A DNA stretch of 64,000 nt from a bacterium (GTDB lineage Bacteria > Patescibacteriota > Minisyncoccia > Phycocordibacterales > GCA-002787175). Numbering within the stretch: the stretch's first letter is position 1; every line of letters starts with the position of its first letter. The stretch covers positions 1,293-65,292 of the forward strand of contig JAUYKQ010000027.1 in NCBI GenBank assembly GCA_030699905.1, given 5' to 3'. This document shows positions 1,229 to 60,078 of this stretch, in pieces. Position numbers and translations under genes: made by a program. Below the pieces are notes generated by a model. The model was not told where the DNA came from. It searched no databases and was given only the letters and a program-made list of their open reading frames with translations.

Positions 1229-1687
1229 CTAATAGCCAAGATAAGCGCAATTTTTACACAAGCCAAAAAATTCAAGCAAATGGTTTTTGACTTTGAATTT
1301 TTTGTCCCGTAAAATCTTTCTTTCCACTTTTTCCAAATCTTCGTCCAAAATAACGTCTTCCACTTTTTCGCACACGGTGCACACCGCGTGATGGTGGTGG
1401 GGAAGTCCCGCTATTTCGTATCTTTTCTTTCCGTCTCCGAATTCAATTTCTGAAATCACTTCTTCTTTCTTTAAAAAATCCAATTCTCGGTAAATCGTTG
1501 TTTTGTTGAATTTTCGCACGGTTTTTGCCGCCTCACTCAAAATAGCGCCAGCCGAAAAGGGCTTCCTGTTTTCAGCCAAAAAACCGACTATAAACGACCT
1601 GTTTTTGGTAACCTTATGTCCACGCTCTTTAAGCGAGCGTAGTATGTTTTCCGAAAATGTCATATTTGCTGTTATGGTACTGTGCAT
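1229..1687 (-). CDS. zur: Fur-family transcriptional regulator, probably Zur. The start is uncertain (MHST at 1687 or MTFS at 1663). The longer N-terminus in the ORF track is a read-through into the family A repeat.
   Basis: Winged-helix N-terminus, an HHHH...CxxC metal-binding region, and a C-terminal CKNC, as in Fur/Zur. It lies immediately upstream of zupT on the same strand. Confidence 0.75.
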   Translation of the reverse strand: MHSTITANMTFSENILRSLKERGHKVTKNRSFIVGFLAENRKPFSAGAILSEAAKTVRKFNKTTIYRELDFLKKEEVISEIEFGDGKKRYEIAGLPHHHHAVCTVCEKVEDVILDEDLEKVERKILRDKKFKVKNHLLEFFGLCKNCAYLGY

Positions 1688-1817
1688 TACGAAATGTCTT
1701 TTTCGGCGAGGTCTTCGTGGCGCACGGAGATTTTTTACTAAAAATCTCCTCTCTCCGGCTAGAGCCGCGCCTCCGAAGGCGCCTCTCAAACCTCGCCTCA
1801 ACACCATTTCGTAATTC
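1684..1817. mobile_element. MITE-like element, family A copy 1. About 135 bp, ends (C)ATTACGAAATG ... CATTTCGTAATTC.
   Basis: Three near-identical copies (here, 19864-20006 and 59937-60078). Internal hairpins GAGATTTTTTACTAAAAATCTC and GCGCCTCCGAAGGCGCC. It generates spurious ORFs (MNYEMVLRRGLRGAFGG...). Confidence 0.8.
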
Positions 1818-1937
1818 AAGGTATAGTAGCAATTTAATAATGTATCCGTTTGAAAAAAACCTAAGGCATAGCGCGTGTCAAAAGTTTCTCTGGCAACGGA
1901 CTACTATATAATATGCAACTGGGTTGCGTTTGTCAAA

Positions 1938-2927: not shown

Positions 2928-3196
2928 ACCTGTTTTGGAAAAAACAGGTGTGGGGGGTAAACCCTTTTTTATTATTCATATAAAAATTCAGCACCTATGT
3001 CTGCCTCTATGATTTGACCATTATCATAATCTGACCATACCCTATGAGAAAGATAATCGTTTATGAAAAAGACCACTAAAATCAAAAGAGTGAGGCCGAG
3101 AAAGATATCCGACGCGTTGTAGTAAATGACAATCTTGGCATCTTTCCTGCTGTCATGCATATGTCTTTTGTGGATGAATTTAAACATGTTTATATT

Positions 3197-3358
3197 CTTT
3201 GAATTACGAAACTCCAAATCCGCGTCTTTCTTTTCAATTTCGGCTACGGCTTTGCAAAAATTATTCAACAGATACTCTGTATATGCCTCATAATTTTTGC
3301 TTCGCCTCGCCCGAAATTGAAAAGAAATCCATCGGAAGCGAGTTTCGTAACTCAAAGT
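3197..3358. mobile_element. MITE-like element, family C copy 1. About 160 bp, ends CTTTGAATTACGAAACTCC ... GGAAGCGAGTTTCGTAACTCAAAGT.
   Basis: Near-identical second copy at 31531-31692. It is the source of the spurious ORFs 2972..3385 and 31513..31773 (both contain ...SYETRFRWISFQFRARRSKNYEAYTEYLLNNFCKAVAEIEKKDA...). Confidence 0.8.
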
Positions 3359-3402
3359 TATTATACGATAGTTTGTAATGGACACAACCGCTCCAATACT
3401 CG

Positions 3403-5618: not shown

Positions 5619-5856
5619 CTTAGAAATGATTCTTTAGTCAGTAGTCCTTGACATAAAACTTCTCAAATGTTATCCTTGACTCAAGCTTTTGATACTCGTG
5701 TGGGGCTCGGAGGCCACAGAAGAATAAACGCACTCGTTTACAACATTCTGATTTTATTACCTGCACAGCCCTGAAACAGCATTGCTTGTTTCAATAAATA
5801 ATATAAAGGGACTCCGGAAGAAATATATTCGGCCGGAGTCCCAAAGTACGATATAG

Positions 5857-7122
5857 ATGCAAACACAAACTAACCGACTTGGTAAAAGCGGCGGTTTTGG
5901 CCGTCGCAGACCTTCTTTTTCACGTTCCGGTACTGGTTACCGAGAGCGCAATCATTCTCAACCTTCCGGTCGAGGATTTTCAAGTAATGAGCGTAGCAGA
6001 GGCCGTTTTCGCAAAATGCCGACATTCAATCCTTCTCAATTTATAAATACCAATCCTGCCGATTTTACGGCGGAAGTGTACGAACCCAAACACCTTTTTT
6101 CAACTTTTGGCCTTTCCGCAAAACTTGTAGACGCTATCAGCGCGCTCGGCATGAAGTGGCCGTCTCCAATTCAGGACCAGATTATTCCACATATTCTTGA
6201 AGGTCGCGATGTTATCGGGCTTGCTGAAACCGGAACGGGGAAGACCGCCGCGTTTCTTATTCCGCTCATTGAAAAAACCCTAAAGGCGTACGGCAGACAG
6301 ACCCTCATCCTTACCCCTACACGCGAACTTGCCATTCAGGTTCGCGATGAACTGCAAAAACTTTCAAGCGGAAGCGGTATTTATTCCGTCATCTGCGTCG
6401 GAGGCACAAATATTCGTCCCCAGATTCAGGCATTGCGAAGAAAAAGTCATTTTGTCGTGGGGACGCCGGGACGCGTTCTTGACCTTATAAAACGAGGGGA
6501 TTTCAAACCCCAGTATGTTAGCGCGGTTGTGCTTGACGAAGCTGACAGAATGTTAGACATGGGATTTATCAATGATATGAGAAAAATATTGAGTAGCGCC
6601 CCTAAAGAGCGGGAAACTTTGCTTTTCTCGGCGACCATGTCAGACGCTACAAAACAAATCGTCAAAGAGTTTCTCCGCGAACCGGTTCTTGTGTCGGTAA
6701 AAAAGAGGGACGTAACCGGCAGTATCAAACAAGATGTCGTGCGTTGCAAAGAAGGCGAGAAATTTGAGATTTTGACCTCGCTTCTCGGTAAGCCCGACTT
6801 TACTCGCGTCCTCATTTTCGGAGCTATGAAGCATGGTGTTGAGAAATTGGCAAAACAGCTTTTGGCAAGCGGTATAAAGGCGGAGTCAATCCACGGAAAC
6901 AAAAATCATAGTCAGAGACAGCGGTCTTTGAAGTCCTTTAAAAACGGCGACAGCCGAGTGCTCGTCGCGACCGATGTTGCCGCGCGCGGTATCCATGTAG
7001 ATGACGTTTCTCACGTTATAAACTACGACTTACCCAATACTTTTGAAGATTATGTCCACAGAATCGGGAGAACAGGCAGAGTAGACAAAAGGGGAGTGGC
7101 TCTTACGTTCGTAAGTGTGTAA
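5857..7122 (+). CDS. DEAD-box ATP-dependent RNA helicase with an RG-rich N-terminal tail
   Basis: Motifs AETGTGKT, PTRELA, DEAD, SAT and HRIGRTGR. Confidence 0.9.
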   Translation: MQTQTNRLGKSGGFGRRRPSFSRSGTGYRERNHSQPSGRGFSSNERSRGRFRKMPTFNPSQFINTNPADFTAEVYEPKHLFSTFGLSAKLVDAISALGMKWPSPIQDQIIPHILEGRDVIGLAETGTGKTAAFLIPLIEKTLKAYGRQTLILTPTRELAIQVRDELQKLSSGSGIYSVICVGGTNIRPQIQALRRKSHFVVGTPGRVLDLIKRGDFKPQYVSAVVLDEADRMLDMGFINDMRKILSSAPKERETLLFSATMSDATKQIVKEFLREPVLVSVKKRDVTGSIKQDVVRCKEGEKFEILTSLLGKPDFTRVLIFGAMKHGVEKLAKQLLASGIKAESIHGNKNHSQRQRSLKSFKNGDSRVLVATDVAARGIHVDDVSHVINYDLPNTFEDYVHRIGRTGRVDKRGVALTFVSV

Positions 7123-7136
7123 ATATACAAAATACT

Positions 7137-7173
7137 AAACTACCCTACCGCCTTGAGGTGGCAGGGTAGTTTA
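7137..7173. terminator. Bidirectional intrinsic terminator between convergent genes
   Basis: AAACTACCCTACCGCCTTGAGGTGGCAGGGTAGTTT: a GC stem flanked by an A-run and a T-run. It overlaps the last codons of the minus-strand gene. Confidence 0.7.
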
Positions 7174-7939
7174 GTTTGCTTCTGTAGATAATTGAAACGA
7201 GAGCGAAACTTAAAATAAGGAGCAGAGACCACGAGCCGATTTTGTGAAATGTGACAATATGCCAATATTCAGTTTGATTCGGGTATAGCCAAACGCGGGT
7301 AAAGGTGCCGATATTTTCGGCAATCCATACAAACAGGGAGGTCAGAAATACGGTCAAGAGAAAAGGCATACGGCGCGTCTTTTGGTAAACTTGGAAATGG
7401 ACTTCTGTTTTAAAAAAGAGGACGAATGCATACGTAAGCAAAAAGTATCTTATGTCGTAAAAAAAATGATGAGTGAAAAAGTTTAAATATATAAGCGAAG
7501 CAAGAATCCATAAGTGGTAATACGGAGGGAAATTCTCGTATGAAAGCTTCAAAAAAATGAAAGCCCGTGAAATATAGCTACCGACTGCCGAATATAGAAA
7601 ACCGGAAAACAATGGCACGGTTTTAATGGCGAAAACCGCGCTTCCTACGGCCGGGTAAAACCATGAACCGACGGATGGATGCGTTTTAAACAATTCCATT
7701 CCGGTCGCCAGTAGGTGGAAAATGATTATGACGGAAAATTCTTTCAGCCGTTCAAAACGAAACGCAAGGGCGCACATCTGAAAGCCGATTGCCATAAGGA
7801 AGATGAAATCGTATCGGCTCACAAACGGCACGGCAACAATTTCAGTCAAAAGAAATACGAAAAGCAGAAACGCGCCGAAATAGCTCGCGCGCAAATTGGC
7901 TATGAAAAAATACCTAAACTCAGCGAAAAAGTTTTTCAT
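7145..7939 (-). CDS. Hypothetical polytopic membrane protein
   Basis: Multiple hydrophobic helices. No motif recognised. Confidence 0.5.
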   Translation of the reverse strand: MKNFFAEFRYFFIANLRASYFGAFLLFVFLLTEIVAVPFVSRYDFIFLMAIGFQMCALAFRFERLKEFSVIIIFHLLATGMELFKTHPSVGSWFYPAVGSAVFAIKTVPLFSGFLYSAVGSYISRAFIFLKLSYENFPPYYHLWILASLIYLNFFTHHFFYDIRYFLLTYAFVLFFKTEVHFQVYQKTRRMPFLLTVFLTSLFVWIAENIGTFTRVWLYPNQTEYWHIVTFHKIGSWSLLLILSFALVSIIYRSKLNYPATSRR

Positions 7940-7962
7940 ATCTGCGGATATACTATCATAAA

Positions 7963-8030
7963 CTTTGAGTTACGAAACTCAAAGTTTCTTAATCTCCTAA
8001 CTTCTTAATCTCTTAATCTCTTAATTTTCT
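7963..8030. repeat. Empty fused terminal-repeat palindrome CTTTGAGTTACGAAACTCAAAGTT, followed by tandem CTTAATCT octamers
   Basis: The 24-mer equals the left and right ends of families A/B/C joined with no cargo. It is followed by tcttaatctcctaacttcttaatctcttaatctcttaatt. Confidence 0.7.
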
Positions 8031-8114
8031 CACATACACAATTATGGACGACCGCCTTTAATTGTGTATGTCGTGATGGGTGAGTAAAAGACGGGCAGAT
8101 ACACTTACCTTGAA

Positions 8115-9083
8115 TTGCGAAATGCGGCAGAAATCGGAATTTATGCTATAATAGCGGAAATGAAAGGCGTTTTCCGTAAAATGTTTACGGTGCAAAATAT
8201 CTCGCTTTTTCTGTGTGCCTTGGTTTTTGCTTCGGCCTCGCTATTTTGGGGAGAGCATAAGAGGGTGGGATTGGCAAAAGAGCTGGCCGAAAAATCAGAA
8301 AATGAAAGGCAAGAGTTCGCTTCCTCCACTGAAAAGCTCATGACGCAAGTTATTGAACTTGAAGGAGAAATCACGGCCACCCGTCAGGACAATTCCATTT
8401 TGGCAAATCTTTTGCGAGCCGAACAAACGCAGACAGGCATGTTTAAAGAACAAATAGACAGAATAGCCGGCACTGTCGGTTCTTTGGACAAGTTAAGCAA
8501 TCTTGACCCCGAGCTTCTTCATAAGTATTCAAAAGTATATTTTCTGAACGAACATTACGAGCCGGAAGGGCTTTACGCAATCCCGCCGGAGTTTGCGTTT
8601 GACGAGAAGCAGATGCAAATCCATGTCAAGGTTTGGCCGTATTTGGAAGGGCTTTTGAACTCGGCCAAGCAAGACGGTTTGAATCTTTCGGTTATCTCCG
8701 CCTTTCGCTCTTTTGATACCCAGTCATCTTTGAAATCATTTTACAAAGTGGTTTATGGGGCGGGGACAGCCAATCAGTTTAGCGCCGACCAAGGGTATTC
8801 CGAACATCAGCTCGGTACGGCTGTTGATTTCACTAACCTTCAAATGGGGGCCAGTTTTTCCGGCTTTGAAAATTCGTCTGAATATGAGTGGCTAAAGCAA
8901 AATGCCTACAAATACGGTTTCGCGCTTTCTTATCCGGAAAATAATTCATATTACAAATTTGAGCCATGGCACTGGAGGTTTGTGGGCGTTGATTTGGCTC
9001 ATAGATTAAAAAGGGAAAATAAAAACTTTTACGAACTTGAGCAACGCGAAATAGACAGATTTCTTTTGGTGATTTTTGATTAG
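8115..9083 (+). CDS. Peptidase M15 (VanY-like D-Ala-D-Ala carboxypeptidase) with an N-terminal TM and coiled coil. The start may instead be at 8160 or 8181.
   Basis: SEHQLGTAVDF motif (matching SxHxxGxAxD) and a downstream D...H. The N-terminal hydrophobic segment suggests a membrane anchor. Confidence 0.65.
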   Translation: MRNAAEIGIYAIIAEMKGVFRKMFTVQNISLFLCALVFASASLFWGEHKRVGLAKELAEKSENERQEFASSTEKLMTQVIELEGEITATRQDNSILANLLRAEQTQTGMFKEQIDRIAGTVGSLDKLSNLDPELLHKYSKVYFLNEHYEPEGLYAIPPEFAFDEKQMQIHVKVWPYLEGLLNSAKQDGLNLSVISAFRSFDTQSSLKSFYKVVYGAGTANQFSADQGYSEHQLGTAVDFTNLQMGASFSGFENSSEYEWLKQNAYKYGFALSYPENNSYYKFEPWHWRFVGVDLAHRLKRENKNFYELEQREIDRFLLVIFD

Positions 9084-9145
9084 CTGCTTTGGGGATTTGC
9101 GCTAAAAGATTTTGAGTTTCGTAATTAAAAGCACAGAACAATCAA

Positions 9146-9659: not shown

Positions 9660-10445
9660 ATGATTATTAAAAAAAATTGGATTCTCGTCGGTTTGGCGGT
9701 TTTGATTTTGGGCGCCGTCATGTTGTTGCGGTTTGGAAACCTCGGCGCGAGTTTGGTGGGGAATTTAAGCAGTCAAGGAAATTGGCTTTTGCCGGTTGTC
9801 GGCGTTGCCGCTCTTATTGACAGCGTAAACCCGTGCGCTTTCGGTATTTTGGTTTTAACCATCGCCTTTCTGTTCTCAATCGGCAAAGGCAGGGCGGGAA
9901 TAATGAAAATCGGGGCTACTTACATTGCCGGCCTTTTCACTGTTTACGTTCTTATCGGACTGGGCATTTTGCAAGCTCTTTACTTTTTCAACACTCCGCA
10001 TTTTATGGCTAAAGTGGGGGCAGTTATTCTCATTGCTCTTGGAGTGGTGAATCTCATAAACGAGTATTATCCGGCCTTTCCGTTAAAATTCCGAATTCCG
10101 CGTTTCATCCACGGTAAAGTTGCCGAACTTGTAAATCGCGCCTCTTTACCCACGGCTTTTCTTTTGGGAGCTTTGGTCGGACTGTTTGAGTTCCCATGCA
10201 CGGGCGGGCCTTATCTTATGGTTCTGGGACTGCTTCATGACCAAGGGACATATTTGACAGGAATTGGGTATCTTTTGTTATACAATTTAATTTTCGTCCT
10301 GCCCCTTGTCGTTATCCTGCTCATTGCCTCGGACAAGACCCTTGCCCAAAAAGTGGAAAAGTGGAAAAAATCTGAAACGGGCAATATGAAGTTCTTGGGA
10401 GGGATTGCCATGATTATTCTGGGTTTGATTATCTTTATTCTTTAA
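9660..10445 (+). CDS. ccdA: CcdA/DsbD-family thiol:disulfide interchange membrane protein
   Basis: Two conserved in-membrane cysteines (VNPCAFGIL and FPCTGGPYL) in a six-TM protein. Confidence 0.7.
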   Translation: MIIKKNWILVGLAVLILGAVMLLRFGNLGASLVGNLSSQGNWLLPVVGVAALIDSVNPCAFGILVLTIAFLFSIGKGRAGIMKIGATYIAGLFTVYVLIGLGILQALYFFNTPHFMAKVGAVILIALGVVNLINEYYPAFPLKFRIPRFIHGKVAELVNRASLPTAFLLGALVGLFEFPCTGGPYLMVLGLLHDQGTYLTGIGYLLLYNLIFVLPLVVILLIASDKTLAQKVEKWKKSETGNMKFLGGIAMIILGLIIFIL

Positions 10446-12797: not shown

Positions 12798-12852
12798 AAT
12801 ACTTTGAATTCTTGAATTATTGTGAATTACGAAAAACGACAAGCCCCTGCCG

Positions 12853-17158: not shown

Positions 17159-17208
17159 TGTTTTGACATATTTTAATTAGGAACTACGCGTTTGGTCTGA
17201 ATTGTATT

Positions 17209-17384
17209 CTCCCTTTTGTAAAGGGGGAGAGAATTTTCAATTTTGCAATTTTCAATTTTCAATCAAATCCCGAAATTTTCAATGCATCAAATTCGTAGTC
17301 AATGTTCGTCCCGCTTTGCTTGTTTCTTTGTTTGAAAATTGATTCATTGAAAATTGATTGAAAATTGCAAAATTGAAAATTCTC
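17209..17384. mobile_element. MITE-like element, family D copy 2, with full ~30 bp terminal inverted repeats
   Basis: Near-identical to 196-352. The ORF-track entry 17279..17488 is an artefact. Confidence 0.75.
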
Positions 17385-17497
17385 TTATCAATGTCCTCGT
17401 GTGACGCAGGGGCGGTGTATTCATACGATATAATCCCATAAATTTGGTAAAATTTCAATTTTTGAAAAAGCTCCGATATAGCGTACAATGTGCCTAC

Positions 17498-18842: not shown

Positions 18843-19856
18843 ATGTCTTTCTTTTCCACAAAACTGGGCATTGACTTGGGTACCGCGAACACTTTGGTGT
18901 TTGTCCCCGGCAAAGGGGTTGTTTTAAACGAGCCGTCCGTTGTCGCTGTTTCCGAGCAGGATAACAAAATACTGGCTGTCGGCCTTGAAGCCAAAAACAT
19001 GATAGGCAAAACACCCGAGAGTATTATCGCTTATCGTCCCATGAAGGACGGCGTTATTGCCGACTACAGAGTAACGGAAGCGATGCTCCGATATTTTATA
19101 GACAAGGCGCTCGGCAAGTGGAACTTCTGGAAGCCGGAGGTCTTGGTATCGGTGCCCGCGGGAGTAACATCCACCGAAAGGCGGGCTGTTGTTGAAGCGA
19201 CCGTTAAAGCGGGGGCCAGGGCGGCATATGTGGTCAAAGAGCCGATTTTGGGAGCCATAGGCGCCGGTATACCCATACAAGAGGCCATGGGGCATATGAT
19301 AGTGGATATTGGAGGGGGAACGACAGACGTAGCCGTTATTTCTCTTGGGGGAATCGTTTCTTCAACGTCTGTGAAATGCGCCGGAAACAGGATTGATACC
19401 GCCATTGCCGACTATATCAAAAAGACATTCAATCTCGGTATCGGGGACAAAATGTCCGAAGACATAAAGATAAAAGTCGGTTCGGCAGTCCCTCTTGAAG
19501 AGGAGCTCACGATGACCATAAAGGGCCGAGATTTTATCACCGGATTGCCTCGTACGACGGAAATAAAGACAAATGAAATAGTCAAAGCTATCGGCAAAGA
19601 GCTTCGTGAAATGATAAAAGCCATTAAAGACGTGTTGCAGGAGACACCGCCGGAATTGGCGGCGGATATCATAGACAGGGGAATAATAATGACAGGGGGC
19701 TCTTCACAGCTTCGTAATTTACCGGAGCTTGTTTATAGGCGTACGGGAGTGAAAGCGGCTTTAGCAAAGGACCCTCTTTACTGCGTAGTAAAGGGAACGG
19801 GCATAGCGCTGGAACATCTGGACACTTATAAAAAGAGCATTATTGCGAAGAGGTGA
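18843..19856 (+). CDS. mreB: Rod shape-determining protein MreB
   Basis: GIDLGTANTLVFV...NEPSVVAV and the actin-fold motifs DIGGGTTDVAVIS. Confidence 0.9.
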   Translation: MSFFSTKLGIDLGTANTLVFVPGKGVVLNEPSVVAVSEQDNKILAVGLEAKNMIGKTPESIIAYRPMKDGVIADYRVTEAMLRYFIDKALGKWNFWKPEVLVSVPAGVTSTERRAVVEATVKAGARAAYVVKEPILGAIGAGIPIQEAMGHMIVDIGGGTTDVAVISLGGIVSSTSVKCAGNRIDTAIADYIKKTFNLGIGDKMSEDIKIKVGSAVPLEEELTMTIKGRDFITGLPRTTEIKTNEIVKAIGKELREMIKAIKDVLQETPPELAADIIDRGIIMTGGSSQLRNLPELVYRRTGVKAALAKDPLYCVVKGTGIALEHLDTYKKSIIAKR

Positions 19857-19863
19857 GACAAAA

Positions 19864-20006
19864 CTGTGAATTACGAAATGTCTTTCTCGGCGAGGTCTTC
19901 GCGGCGCACGAAGATTTTTTGCTAAAAATCTTCTCTCTCCAGCGCCGGCCGCGCTTCCGAAGGCGCCACTCAAACCTCGCCTCAACACCATTTCGTAATC
20001 CACAGT
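19864..20006. mobile_element. MITE-like element, family A copy 2
   Basis: CTGTGAATTACGAAATG ... CATTTCGTAATCCACAGT. Nearly identical to copy 1. Spurious ORF 19761..20003. Confidence 0.8.
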
Positions 20007-26795: not shown

Positions 26796-27860
26796 ATGTT
26801 TGAACAATTCAAATCATATTTTAATAAATACGCTTCCAACGATATCGGTATAGACCTTGGTACCGCCAATACTTTGGTTTATGTCCGAGGACAGGGCATT
26901 GTCGTAAACGAACCATCGGTTGTTGCCGTTAATCAGAAGACCGGCCAAGTGGTGGCTGTTGGTTCGCAAGCCAAAGACATGCTCGGGCGAACGCCCGGAC
27001 ACATCGTTGCCATAAAACCTCTTGTCGGAGGGGTGATTTCCGATTTTGAAGTTACGGAAGAAATGATAGCGTACCTTTTAAAAAGAGTGGAAGGCGACTC
27101 GCGCAGGATCTTGGGGCCGAGGGTGGTCATCGGTGTTCCTTCGGGTGTCACTAACGTGGAGTCCCGAGCAGTCAGAGACGCTACCAAAAACAACGGCGCT
27201 CGCGAAGTATATGTGGTGGAAGAGCCGATGGCGGCGGCCATAGGAATACGACTGCCTGTTATGGATCCCGTCGGCAGTATGATAGTTGACATAGGAGGAG
27301 GGACGACAGACGTGGCGGTTATTTCTCTTGCTGGGGTCGTGCGTTCAAAAAGTTTGAAAATAGCTGGCGACAAGTTGAACGAGGATATCATCTCCTATAT
27401 ACGAGGCGAGTTTAAAATTCTAATCGGCGAAAAGACGGCGGAGAACGTTAAAATAGCCATTGGCTCCGTGTTGCCTCAAGAGGCGCCGATGGAAGCGGTC
27501 ATAAAAGGTCGCGACCTTATCACCGGCTTGCCGAGAGAAGTCATAATTACCGACTCGGATATCAGAGAAGCCATTTGCGGTTCGGTGGATATTTTGGTGG
27601 AAGCGGTGAAAGAGGTCTTGGAAACAACTCCTCCTGAAATAGTATCGGATATAATGCATAGGGGAGCATATCTTGTCGGAGGCGGGGCTTTGCTTCGCGG
27701 TGTTGATGTTTTGTTTGCCGACTCAACAAAAGTACCTTTCCATATCGCGGACGACCCTCTGTCGGCTGTTGGTCGCGGGGCGGGCATAATCCTTGAGGAC
27801 TTGAGCAAATATGAAGAGGTGCTCATAAAAAGCGAAGATGAACTACCTCCTAAAAACTAA
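26796..27860 (+). CDS. mreB: MreB paralog (Mbl-like)
   Basis: GIDLGTANTLVYV...NEPSVVAV and DIGGGTTDVAVIS. It lies immediately upstream of mreC. Confidence 0.9.
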   Translation: MFEQFKSYFNKYASNDIGIDLGTANTLVYVRGQGIVVNEPSVVAVNQKTGQVVAVGSQAKDMLGRTPGHIVAIKPLVGGVISDFEVTEEMIAYLLKRVEGDSRRILGPRVVIGVPSGVTNVESRAVRDATKNNGAREVYVVEEPMAAAIGIRLPVMDPVGSMIVDIGGGTTDVAVISLAGVVRSKSLKIAGDKLNEDIISYIRGEFKILIGEKTAENVKIAIGSVLPQEAPMEAVIKGRDLITGLPREVIITDSDIREAICGSVDILVEAVKEVLETTPPEIVSDIMHRGAYLVGGGALLRGVDVLFADSTKVPFHIADDPLSAVGRGAGIILEDLSKYEEVLIKSEDELPPKN

Positions 27861-30776: not shown

Positions 30777-30886
30777 TCATCTCTCCCTAATTCTTAATTC
30801 ATAATTCATAAATCCTAAATCCTATTTCGTGGAGTATCTTTTCCTCCACTATCGTGTTATACTTCTGTGGTAAGATTTATAATAAA

Positions 30887-31026
30887 CTGTGAATTACAAA
30901 ACACCTGCTTCCCCCCCTCGGAAAGCTCCCAAAAAAGTGACCGCTCCAAGGGCGCTTGTCCGGTCCCAGTCACTTTTTTGTGACTTTCCTCGTGGGGGGG
31001 GAGCATGCCGTTTTTTGTAATTCAAG
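30887..31026. mobile_element. MITE-like element, family B copy 2
   Basis: CTGTGAATTACAAAACACCTGCTTCCCCCCC...TTTTTTGTAATTCAAG. It is preceded by short AATTCATA/AATCCTA tandem units at 30795-30826. Confidence 0.8.
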
Positions 31027-31047
31027 AATAATAAAATAAAAAAACTT

Positions 31048-31530: not shown

Positions 31531-31692
31531 CTTTGAATTACGAAACTCCAATTCCGCGTCTTTCTTTTCAATTTCGGCTACGGCTTTGCAAAAATTATTC
31601 AACAGATACTCTGTATACGCCTCATAATTTTTGCTTCGCCTCGCTCGAAATTGAAAAGAAATCCATCGGAAGCGAGTTTCGTAACTCAAAGT
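31531..31692. mobile_element. MITE-like element, family C copy 2
   Basis: Nearly identical to 3197-3358. Confidence 0.8.
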
Positions 31693-48685: not shown

Positions 48686-48822
48686 CACGAAATATGTAAC
48701 TTGTAACGCCATAATATACAACGTGTAACTTGTAACGTGTAACGCCGGAAAAGAAATACTCTGACGCTACACGTTACACGCTATACGTTATACGCTACAT
48801 GTTACATGTTTCGCGTTACATG
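48686..48822. repeat. Palindromic GTAAC/GTTAC-rich element (family E), about 135 bp, with inverted ends CACGAAATATGTAAC ... GTTACATGTTTCGCG
   Basis: The left half is tandem TGTAAC(G) units; the right half is their reverse complement (CGTTACA). It lies between the divergent/convergent cysS start and corA end. Confidence 0.65.
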
Positions 48823-49774: not shown

Positions 49775-49913
49775 CTGTGAATTACGAAACGCCTGCCCCC
49801 CACGAGGGAAAGCTCCCAAAAAAGTGACCGCTCCAAGGGCGCTTGCCTAGGGCTCAGTCACTTTTTTGTGACTTTCCTCGTGGGGGGGCGACTGCCGTAT
49901 TTTGTAATTCAAG
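49775..49913. mobile_element. MITE-like element, family B copy 4
   Basis: CTGTGAATTACGAAACGCCTGCCCCCCACGAGG...GCCGTATTTTGTAATTCAAG. Confidence 0.8.
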
Positions 49914-50040
49914 ATTTTTAAACCTTTGTCGCTCGAACTTTACTTGACTTAAATTATAACTCACGGACGGCAATTCACAACTCATAACTCGGTAACCGAT
50001 TACATTCTTTTTTTTCTTTCCACAAATCCGACGACAACAA

Positions 50041-51300: not shown

Positions 51301-51370
51301 GTCGGGAGGAACCGGCTATGATTTACGATTTATGATTCAGGATTTAGGAGAAAAGAAAATAACCAGAAGG

Positions 51371-59922: not shown

Positions 59923-59936
59923 AAGAGGTATTAAAC

Positions 59937-60078
59937 CTTGAATTACGAAATGTCTTTTTCGGCGAGGTCTTCGTACGCCACGAAGATTTTTTACTAAAAA
60001 TCTCCTCTCTCCGGCGCCAGCCGCGCCTCCGAAGGCGCCTCTCAAACCTCGCCTCAACACCATTTCGTAATTCACGGT
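59937..60078. mobile_element. MITE-like element, family A copy 3
   Basis: TTGAATTACGAAATG...CATTTCGTAATTCACGGT. Spurious ORF 59884..60075. Confidence 0.8.

Follow-up and report, generated by a model that had tools for sequence, protein, structure and literature searches.

The IS982 family of insertion sequences, including its MITE derivatives, has been reviewed by Fayad et al. 2020 (PMC7335449). Inverted repeats of this family start with 5'-AC(N)6T(N)5TT, and the direct repeats are variable in length (PMC7335449). Another system to be considered is the nearly precise excision of Tn10, which is described, in the part of PMC12524634 that cites d'Alencon et al., as transposase-independent copy-choice between short direct repeats that lie within inverted repeats; the primary Tn10 references, Ross, Swan & Kleckner 1979 and Foster et al. 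1981, appear in the reference list of 10.1101/2023.06.07.543989. Short intergenic palindromes with several copies per genome are also known as REP/BIME, which have a GTAG-type REP head and whose RAYT is an IS200/IS605-like tyrosine (HUH) enzyme. We know of no production of target-site duplications (TSDs) by REP/RAYT systems. None of the kinds involved here is new: IS982-family elements, MITEs, solo ends and nearly-precise-excision remnants have been described before.

Here we describe a 22-nt palindrome in a 64-kb window, the whole stretch of DNA that was analysed. The contig is from a Patescibacteria (CPR) genome, and the next relatives of its DUF817 and LysRS proteins are from Paceibacterota-type MAGs. 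We consider it probable that the palindrome is the remnant, reduced to its terminal inverted repeats (TIRs), of a MITE that had been moved by a Patescibacteria-wide IS982-family DDE transposase and then lost its interior by direct-repeat deletion.

The 18-nt end, its MITEs and its transposase

Nine repeats of 140-161 nt are found in the window, all bounded by the same 18-nt TIR. They belong to families A, B and C, whose interiors are unrelated and whose inverted ends are common to all. No strand is assigned to any of them.

1680..1821, no strand, MITE family A copy 1, 142 nt
19864..20005, no strand, MITE family A copy 2
59936..60077, no strand, MITE family A copy 3, TSD TATTAAA
28641..28782, no strand, MITE family B copy 1, right end degenerate
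30887..31027, no strand, MITE family B copy 2, TSD ATAATAAA
33773..33918, no strand, MITE family B copy 3, between LysRS and MraZ
49775..49914, no strand, MITE family B copy 4, TSD TTTTTAAA
3197..3357, no strand, MITE family C copy 1, 161 nt, TIR position 7 being A at one end and G at the other
31531..31691, no strand, MITE family C copy 2, between GreA and LysRS

As is typical of MITEs, the members of the three families are short and non-coding, are present in two to four copies each, and have IS ends, with TSDs at 30887, 49775 and 59936. No transposase gene was found in the 64-kb window by tblastn, and the nine elements are therefore non-autonomous MITEs. It should be mentioned that gene calling has placed small ORFs across family C MITEs, at 5778-5975 and 9853-10029 of locus L001 (58-65 aa) and at 2972-3385 of the window (a 137-aa ORF); these are probably spurious.

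The end profile, built from 236 ends in the window and in related loci, reads CTTTGA(A/G)TTACGAAACTC and is a sharply bounded 18-nt TIR, outside of which neither side is conserved. G-type ends make up ~9% of all ends in this profile. The same TIR bounds complete elements at L011 566-1546, L080 4211-5195 and L019 6598-7602 (981, 985 and 1005 bp, respectively), each with a single ORF of 266-267 aa, TIRs and TSDs of 6-7 bp; the TSD of the full-length L080 element is TAATAAA. The three transposases score 87-103 bits against the Pfam model PF13612 DDE_Tnp_1_3, whose cut-off is 27. Among the NCBIfam families, NF033520 IS982 fits them best, at 104-130 bits, which is at or below the 130-bit cut-off, and IS5 comes next at 30-43 bits. 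They are 47-68% identical to one another and have an end of ~16 nt in common, CTTTGAATTACGAAAC being present at 5 of the 6 ends, a conservation that is partly built in because the three elements were chosen by an exact 18-mer at one end.

Based on these matches, the autonomous elements are filed as a putative divergent branch of the IS982 type. Their size of ~1 kb, the one DDE transposase, the TIRs, the variable direct repeats and the 5'-AC start are all features shared with IS982. Comparison of the ends with the motif AC(N)6T(N)5TT finds the AC (an A stands before CTTTG in 73% of ends) and the T at position 9. However, the second half of the motif is unmatched, with AA instead of TT at positions 15-16. 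The host also differs, the word Patescibacteria being absent from the text of the IS982 review (PMC7335449). No relevant paper turned up when the literature was searched for this end sequence or for CPR insertion sequences and MITEs, and this IS982-type family, widespread in Patescibacteria, is apparently undescribed.

Exact TSDs of 6-8 bp flank 42 of 73 non-redundant paired elements, compared to none of 73 controls with a shifted right boundary. Their lengths are 6 bp in 12 elements, 7 bp in 25 and 8 bp in 5, and most of the duplicated sequences are rich in A+T, frequently with the pattern T-N5-A. The TIR-bounded elements transpose, and since the same TIR bounds transposase-encoding ISs and TSDs flank the elements, the window repeats are MITEs. 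The preliminary description of this DNA had expected the palindrome to give a handle on the mobilisation mechanism. That expectation has been borne out, the handle being an IS982-family DDE transposase with TSDs of 6-8 bp (mostly 7 bp), usually A+T-rich.

A scan with the 18-mer, using one genome per species, yielded at least 120 loci, nearly all of them in Patescibacteria. Among the matches listed are Saccharibacteria, many Paceibacterota/Parcubacteria, Magasanikbacteria, Uhrbacteria, Falkowbacteria, Moranbacteria and Minisyncoccia. Many of the matches lie 30-100 nt from contig ends, as a multi-copy repeat would give. The sampled loci contain 72 MITE-sized elements of 76-329 nt (median 143), which fall into 28 clusters of unrelated interiors. 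A 45-nt short element in L048 was rejected, being a heptamer array with no real ends. Exact end matches are also present in MAGs labelled Gammaproteobacteria, Bdellovibrionales, Synechococcus and Nitrotoga (L006, L007, L021, L038, L046, L055, L071, L087, L104, L105, L107 and L119); these may be explained by mis-binning of CPR contigs, by wrong labels or by real transfer. At L034 705-2857, the halves of one MITE type are 2.1 kb apart, with two non-transposase ORFs between them and no flanking TSD. The arrangement represents a split MITE or else a derivative with cargo.

The family C copies of the window are 95-98% identical to copies in GCA_030689285.1 (L001, L093, L100), where they occupy unrelated sites. 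DUF817 is the one gene common to the window and that assembly, with just 90% DNA identity. The gene order GreA-LysRS...MraZ-RsmH of the window is conserved in L139, in which LysRS is 74% identical. The GreA-LysRS gap is 4 bp in L139, and the window carries family C copy 2 there. No end, MITE or palindrome was found over the 11.5 kb of L139, including the site syntenic to family B copy 3. The alignment of related genomes put forward in the preliminary description thus finds the corresponding MITE sites empty in syntenic L139, with no palindrome there. The sole other assembly of the window's strain is a 2.1-kb Logan contig, L138, which stops inside MITEs on both sides.

The palindrome at 7963 and its surroundings

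A 24-mer sharing its ends with families A/B/C had been noted at 7963-7986. A search of the window finds CTTTGAGTTACGAAACTCAAAGTT exactly there. With up to three mismatches allowed, the only other match in the 64-kb window is its own reverse strand, and shuffled windows gave zero matches. The palindrome, its neighbouring genes and the isolated ends of the window are as follows.

7963..7984, no strand, perfect hairpin with the 22-nt core CTTTGAGTTACGAAACTCAAAG, pairing reaching 7960-7987 (12-bp stem)
7145..7939, minus strand, DUF817 membrane-protein gene, start codon 24 nt from the palindrome
8160..9083, plus strand, VanY-type D-Ala-D-Ala carboxypeptidase gene, ORF from 8115, probable ATG at 8160
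8108..8124, plus strand, solo left end CCTTGAATTGCGAAATG, family A-like, just upstream of the VanY start
9110..9131, no strand, second 22-nt palindrome, decayed, TTTTGAGTT-TCGT-AATTAAAAG, centre in the opposite orientation
12802..12838, plus strand, solo left end TTGTGAATTACGAAAAAC (12820-12837), preceded by two partial tandem tip copies, period-8 TTGAATTA

The 22-nt core, CTTTGAGTT-ACGA-AACTCAAAG, is a TIR-only sequence, its arms being the outer tips of the 18-nt TIR CTTTGARTTACGAAACTC. Each strand of the core holds one full G-type end, CTTTGAGTTACGAAACTC, and the two ends overlap by 14 nt with no other bases present, so that two overlapped 18-nt ends account for the whole palindrome (4+14+4 = 22 nt). 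The proposal that a left end had been fused to a right end is therefore correct as to the shared ends; the two do not lie side by side, however, as each is 18 nt long, not ~12, and they overlap by 14 nt. Folding of 7955-7995 as ssDNA gives a 12-bp stem, AAACTTTGAGTT / AACTCAAAGTTT, closed by a 4-nt ACGA loop, with a dG of -10.9 kcal/mol and z = -7.5.

The palindrome sits in a 220-nt spacer between the divergent DUF817 and VanY genes. It has no TSD, the flanks being TCATAAA vs TTTCTTA, and a period-8 array, TCTTAATC x4.9 at 7987-8025, abuts one of its sides. The closest DUF817-bearing relative, L001 (88% aa identity), is non-syntenic and has the gene itself alone in common; similarity over the DUF817 gene and its core promoter ends at 7961, 2 nt short of the palindrome. 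The two genomes have nothing in common in the order of genes around DUF817, so that the flanks of the window palindrome have probably been rearranged. The missing TSD would be explained either by an old remnant or by later rearrangement of the flanks. No other assembly was matched by exact-protein look-ups with the window DUF817 and VanY, and neither these nor L001 provided a filled or empty allele of the exact 7963 site; none was obtainable because L001 shares the DUF817 gene alone.

The site at 9111-9130, previously listed as a solo end, is instead the decayed second palindrome, TTTTGAGTTTCGTAATTAAAAG at 9110-9131, which has 2 mismatches to the degenerate 22-mer pattern, agrees with the perfect G-type 22-mer at 19 of 22 positions, and is without a TSD. 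The solo end reported at 12802-12838 is real, being a left end at 12820-12837 plus the two partial tip copies. The solo left end at 8108-8124 is an addition to the preliminary description. It is noted that the solo left end at 8108-8124 and the decayed 22-mer at 9110-9131 bracket VanY 1024 bp apart. The spacing of 8108-9131 is about the size of a full insertion sequence, and the arrangement resembles a passenger-gene cassette, which is maybe a coincidence; no TSD surrounds the bracket (ACACTTA vs CACAGAA).

Several other repeats were observed. Between the palindrome and VanY, at 8030-8075, there is a further inverted repeat of 13 bp, ACATACACAATTA...TAATTGTGTATGT. Intergenic A+T-rich tandem arrays of 7-8 nt are present at 357-417, 7987-8025, 17232-17381, 30786-30828, 48720-48820 and 51317-51349 of the window, with units that include TCCTAAA, TCTTAATC, AATTTTC and CCTAATT, and some of them adjoin transposon ends. 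Heptamer arrays from the end tip (GAATTAT, AAATTCA) are found at L048 5640-5715 and L128 861-930. An intergenic block of ~160-180 nt is duplicated at 194-354 and 17207-17386 of the window with 89-94% identity; it includes arrays of AATTTTC and ATTGAAA and bears no relation to the MITE ends. The segments 19295-19389 and 27278-27372 are coding and 74% identical in DNA over 95 nt; judged from the DNA, they may be actin/Hsp70-fold ATPase paralogues. At gathering thresholds, Rfam detects three tRNAs in the whole window and nothing else.

The 22-nt palindromes and their probable origin

Other 22-mers were sought in metagenomes with the pattern CTTTGARTTACGAAAYTCAAAG, which does not match 22-mers with ACGT or TCGA centres. 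Sixteen contigs were recovered, corresponding to ~11 independent loci. One of these, L125, is an ordinary MITE end whose interior begins AAAG; the remaining 22-mers are bare, intergenic and often on MITE-carrying contigs. A scan of viral contigs gave no 22-mer, and two lone end matches there look like chance in coding sequence. TSDs directly flank three 22-mers, ATAGTAG at L129, TAATAT at L134 and AATTAT at L137, each with a chance probability of ~1/4,000 to 1/16,000. Because these TSDs abut the 22-mers, both outer edges are true element ends, and the units entered by transposition. All short forms in ~1 Mb of Patescibacteria DNA are exactly 22 nt, the next size being 76 nt. Decayed 22-nt copies are present at window 9110-9131, L101 64-85 and L127 2733-2754.

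The remnants differ from intact elements in the type of their ends. G is present at both ends (G/G) in 6 of 12 independent remnant loci, compared to 4 of 73 intact elements (Fisher p = 3e-4), although the G/G loci may stem from a few related genomes and are then not fully independent. Family C MITEs accompany G/G remnants on the same short contigs (the window, L123, L124 and L129); in two of these, L123 and L129, both family C ends are of the G type.

The preliminary description had offered as one reading that cargos were inserted at the centre of a pre-existing REP-like palindrome, with ACGAAA as a site-specific target. A pre-existing palindrome might also be regulatory (an operator or a terminator). 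The strong hairpin would agree with such a palindrome, and so would its location in a promoter region, where a weak sigma-70-like match makes use of the distal arm (-35 TTGAGT at 7982-7977, -10 TATGAT at 7960-7955). However, complete ISs that carry a transposase have the same ends, and the TSDs (42/73) lie outside these ends. The conserved end measures 18 nt per side, while splitting the 22-mer would give just 11 nt, a geometry that by itself excludes insertion at the centre; GAAACTC supplies 7 more conserved bases per side in all 28 unrelated interior types. The syntenic empty sites in L139 are without a palindrome, and palindromic continuation is seen in 1 of 138 exact 18-mer matches in the sampled loci and the window, namely the window copy itself. 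These observations contradict cargo insertion at an ACGAAA target and leave an origin from any pre-existing palindrome highly improbable.

Particular functions of this kind were considered separately. With the palindrome as -35 box for DUF817, the match to the consensus is 9/12 only, and no promoter claim is made; the conserved DUF817 promoter appears, from its sequence, to be of the extended -10 type. An intrinsic terminator was rejected, as the stem has 3 G-C pairs of 12 and is followed by no T run. The scan of 7800-8300 gave no terminator-like site. Nor can the palindrome terminate DUF817 or VanY, because both genes point away from it. The palindromes resemble REP/BIME in being short, intergenic and present in several copies per genome. 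Unlike REP/BIME, they are without a GTAG-type head, and a REP/BIME assignment was rejected considering that the associated enzyme is of the DDE IS982 type, not a tyrosine (HUH) enzyme, and that TSDs are present.

The symmetry of the end itself suggests how a TIR-only unit could form. The end contains the dyad GAGTT-N4-AACTC (GAGTT-ACGA-AACTC), by which the left and right ends of one element would share a direct repeat as well as an inverted one. Positions 5-18 of the left end, GAGTTACGAAACTC, and positions 1-14 of the right end, GAGTTTCGTAACTC, are identical at 12 of 14 positions on the same strand. The 14-nt imperfect direct repeat, GAGTT[A/T]CG[A/T]AACTC, would thus have 12/14 identical positions in a G/G element and 10/14 with the common A variant. 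Copy-choice or slippage deletion between these repeats, helped by the ssDNA hairpin of the element, could remove the whole interior and would keep one repeat copy plus the outer CTTT and AAAG, giving 22 nt. Such a model predicts easier collapse of G/G elements, and the G/G excess among the remnants is the bias that it predicts. The likely parent of the window remnant would be a family C MITE. As judged from these sequences, the remnants most likely arose by host-mediated internal deletion between short direct repeats and not as transposase excision scars. The second reading in the preliminary description, an excision footprint, can accordingly be kept in part: the palindrome is a remnant without interior, with TSDs at three other copies, and the agent is likely to have been host-mediated deletion in place of a transposase.

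Several observations run against the deletion. The window palindrome is without a TSD, no filled allele of its site was found, and TSDs are present at just 3 of ~11 remnants elsewhere, compared to 58% of intact elements. In addition, the window family C copies are A/G, and a deletion of the simplest kind would turn them into an imperfect A..C palindrome instead of the perfect G/G palindrome observed. No true A..C (mixed-type) remnant was found in the metagenome scan, L101 64-85 and window 9110-9131 being near that type. The excess of perfect palindromes would require one further assumption: the parent was G/G, a quasi-palindrome was corrected by template switching, or selection was at work.

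A rival account is an origin from one end, in which truncation leaves a solo end whose hairpin is extended by chance or by intramolecular template switching, with no involvement of a second end. The 22-mer is indeed a complete G-type 18-nt end plus 4 bases, solo ends are present in the window at 8108 and 12820, and template-switch correction would give remnants that are all perfect palindromes with no mixed types. The window copy is also without a TSD, and L125, with its interior starting AAAG, documents one chance case. The exact 6-7-bp TSDs at both edges of three remnants, however, fix both outer boundaries as element ends. A chance extension by 4-6 nt would be expected at only 1/256 to 1/4096 per solo end, and although G-type ends amount to ~9%, the metagenome scan contains five G/G 22-mers vs the single chance A..C case. 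We therefore regard a one-ended origin as rather unlikely.

It can also be asked if the 22-mer is itself a minimal mobile unit, either moved here by the transposase or able to act as a transposon end. The left end of a 257-nt unit at L128 839-1095 consists of a 22-mer, and at L135 769-965 a 22-mer is again in the left-end position, with a normal right end 160 nt further. The L128 unit is flanked by the TSD TCTATAT, which suggests that a remnant may be reusable as a transposon end. Both arrangements would fit a minimal mobile unit, as would the TSDs at three copies and the occurrence of several copies on contigs from one sample (L123, L124, L127). On the other hand, two 18-nt sites overlapping by 14 nt would be unlikely to seat two transposase subunits, and the TSD is missing at most copies, including that of the window. 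The 22-mers are rarer than MITEs (2 vs 9 in the window, 1 vs ~70 in the genome sample), and a TSD is equally expected if the remnant had inherited the duplication of its parent. We consider it very unlikely that the 22-mer is a minimal mobile unit.

Collapse of a MITE by direct-repeat deletion, the reading that we prefer, resembles the nearly precise excision of Tn10. In both, the interior is lost between short direct repeats in the TIRs, the palindromic remnant comes from the outer parts of both ends, and the TSD is kept with the remnant, here at L129, L134 and L137. The Tn10 remnant is ~50 bp, whereas the one described here is 22 nt, and the direct repeat is made here by the dyad within the 18-nt end itself. 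The parent would be a MITE of 140-160 nt in contrast to a 9-kb composite transposon, and for the elements studied here the process is inferred from sequence. The remnant is a scar of textbook type, and the mechanism is not new.

Significance for Patescibacteria

The repeat families of the window have been identified as MITEs of an IS982-type transposon, with the enzyme family, the TSD size and the 18-nt end, and the same end is found across Saccharibacteria, Paceibacterota, Magasanikbacteria, Uhrbacteria, Moranbacteria and other groups. No description of MITEs in these streamlined ~1 Mb CPR genomes was found in a literature search. Assemblies break at these elements and remnants, which also give rise to spurious small ORFs and mark points of rearrangement; a model of them would help annotators of CPR genomes.

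A bolder and doubtful extension is that the end dyad makes these transposons self-erasing, in that each insertion could collapse to a 22-nt palindrome, maybe still usable as an end or as a promoter-proximal hairpin. If this were true, an undescribed, phylum-wide superfamily of IS982-like MITEs in the smallest bacterial genomes would pass regularly through a 22-mer stage, possibly a functional one, in its life cycle, or the 22-mers might even be the smallest mobile DNA units known. The added interest of the remnant lies in its belonging to a phylum-wide family in very small genomes, and in an end symmetry that seems to programme a discrete 22-nt scar.
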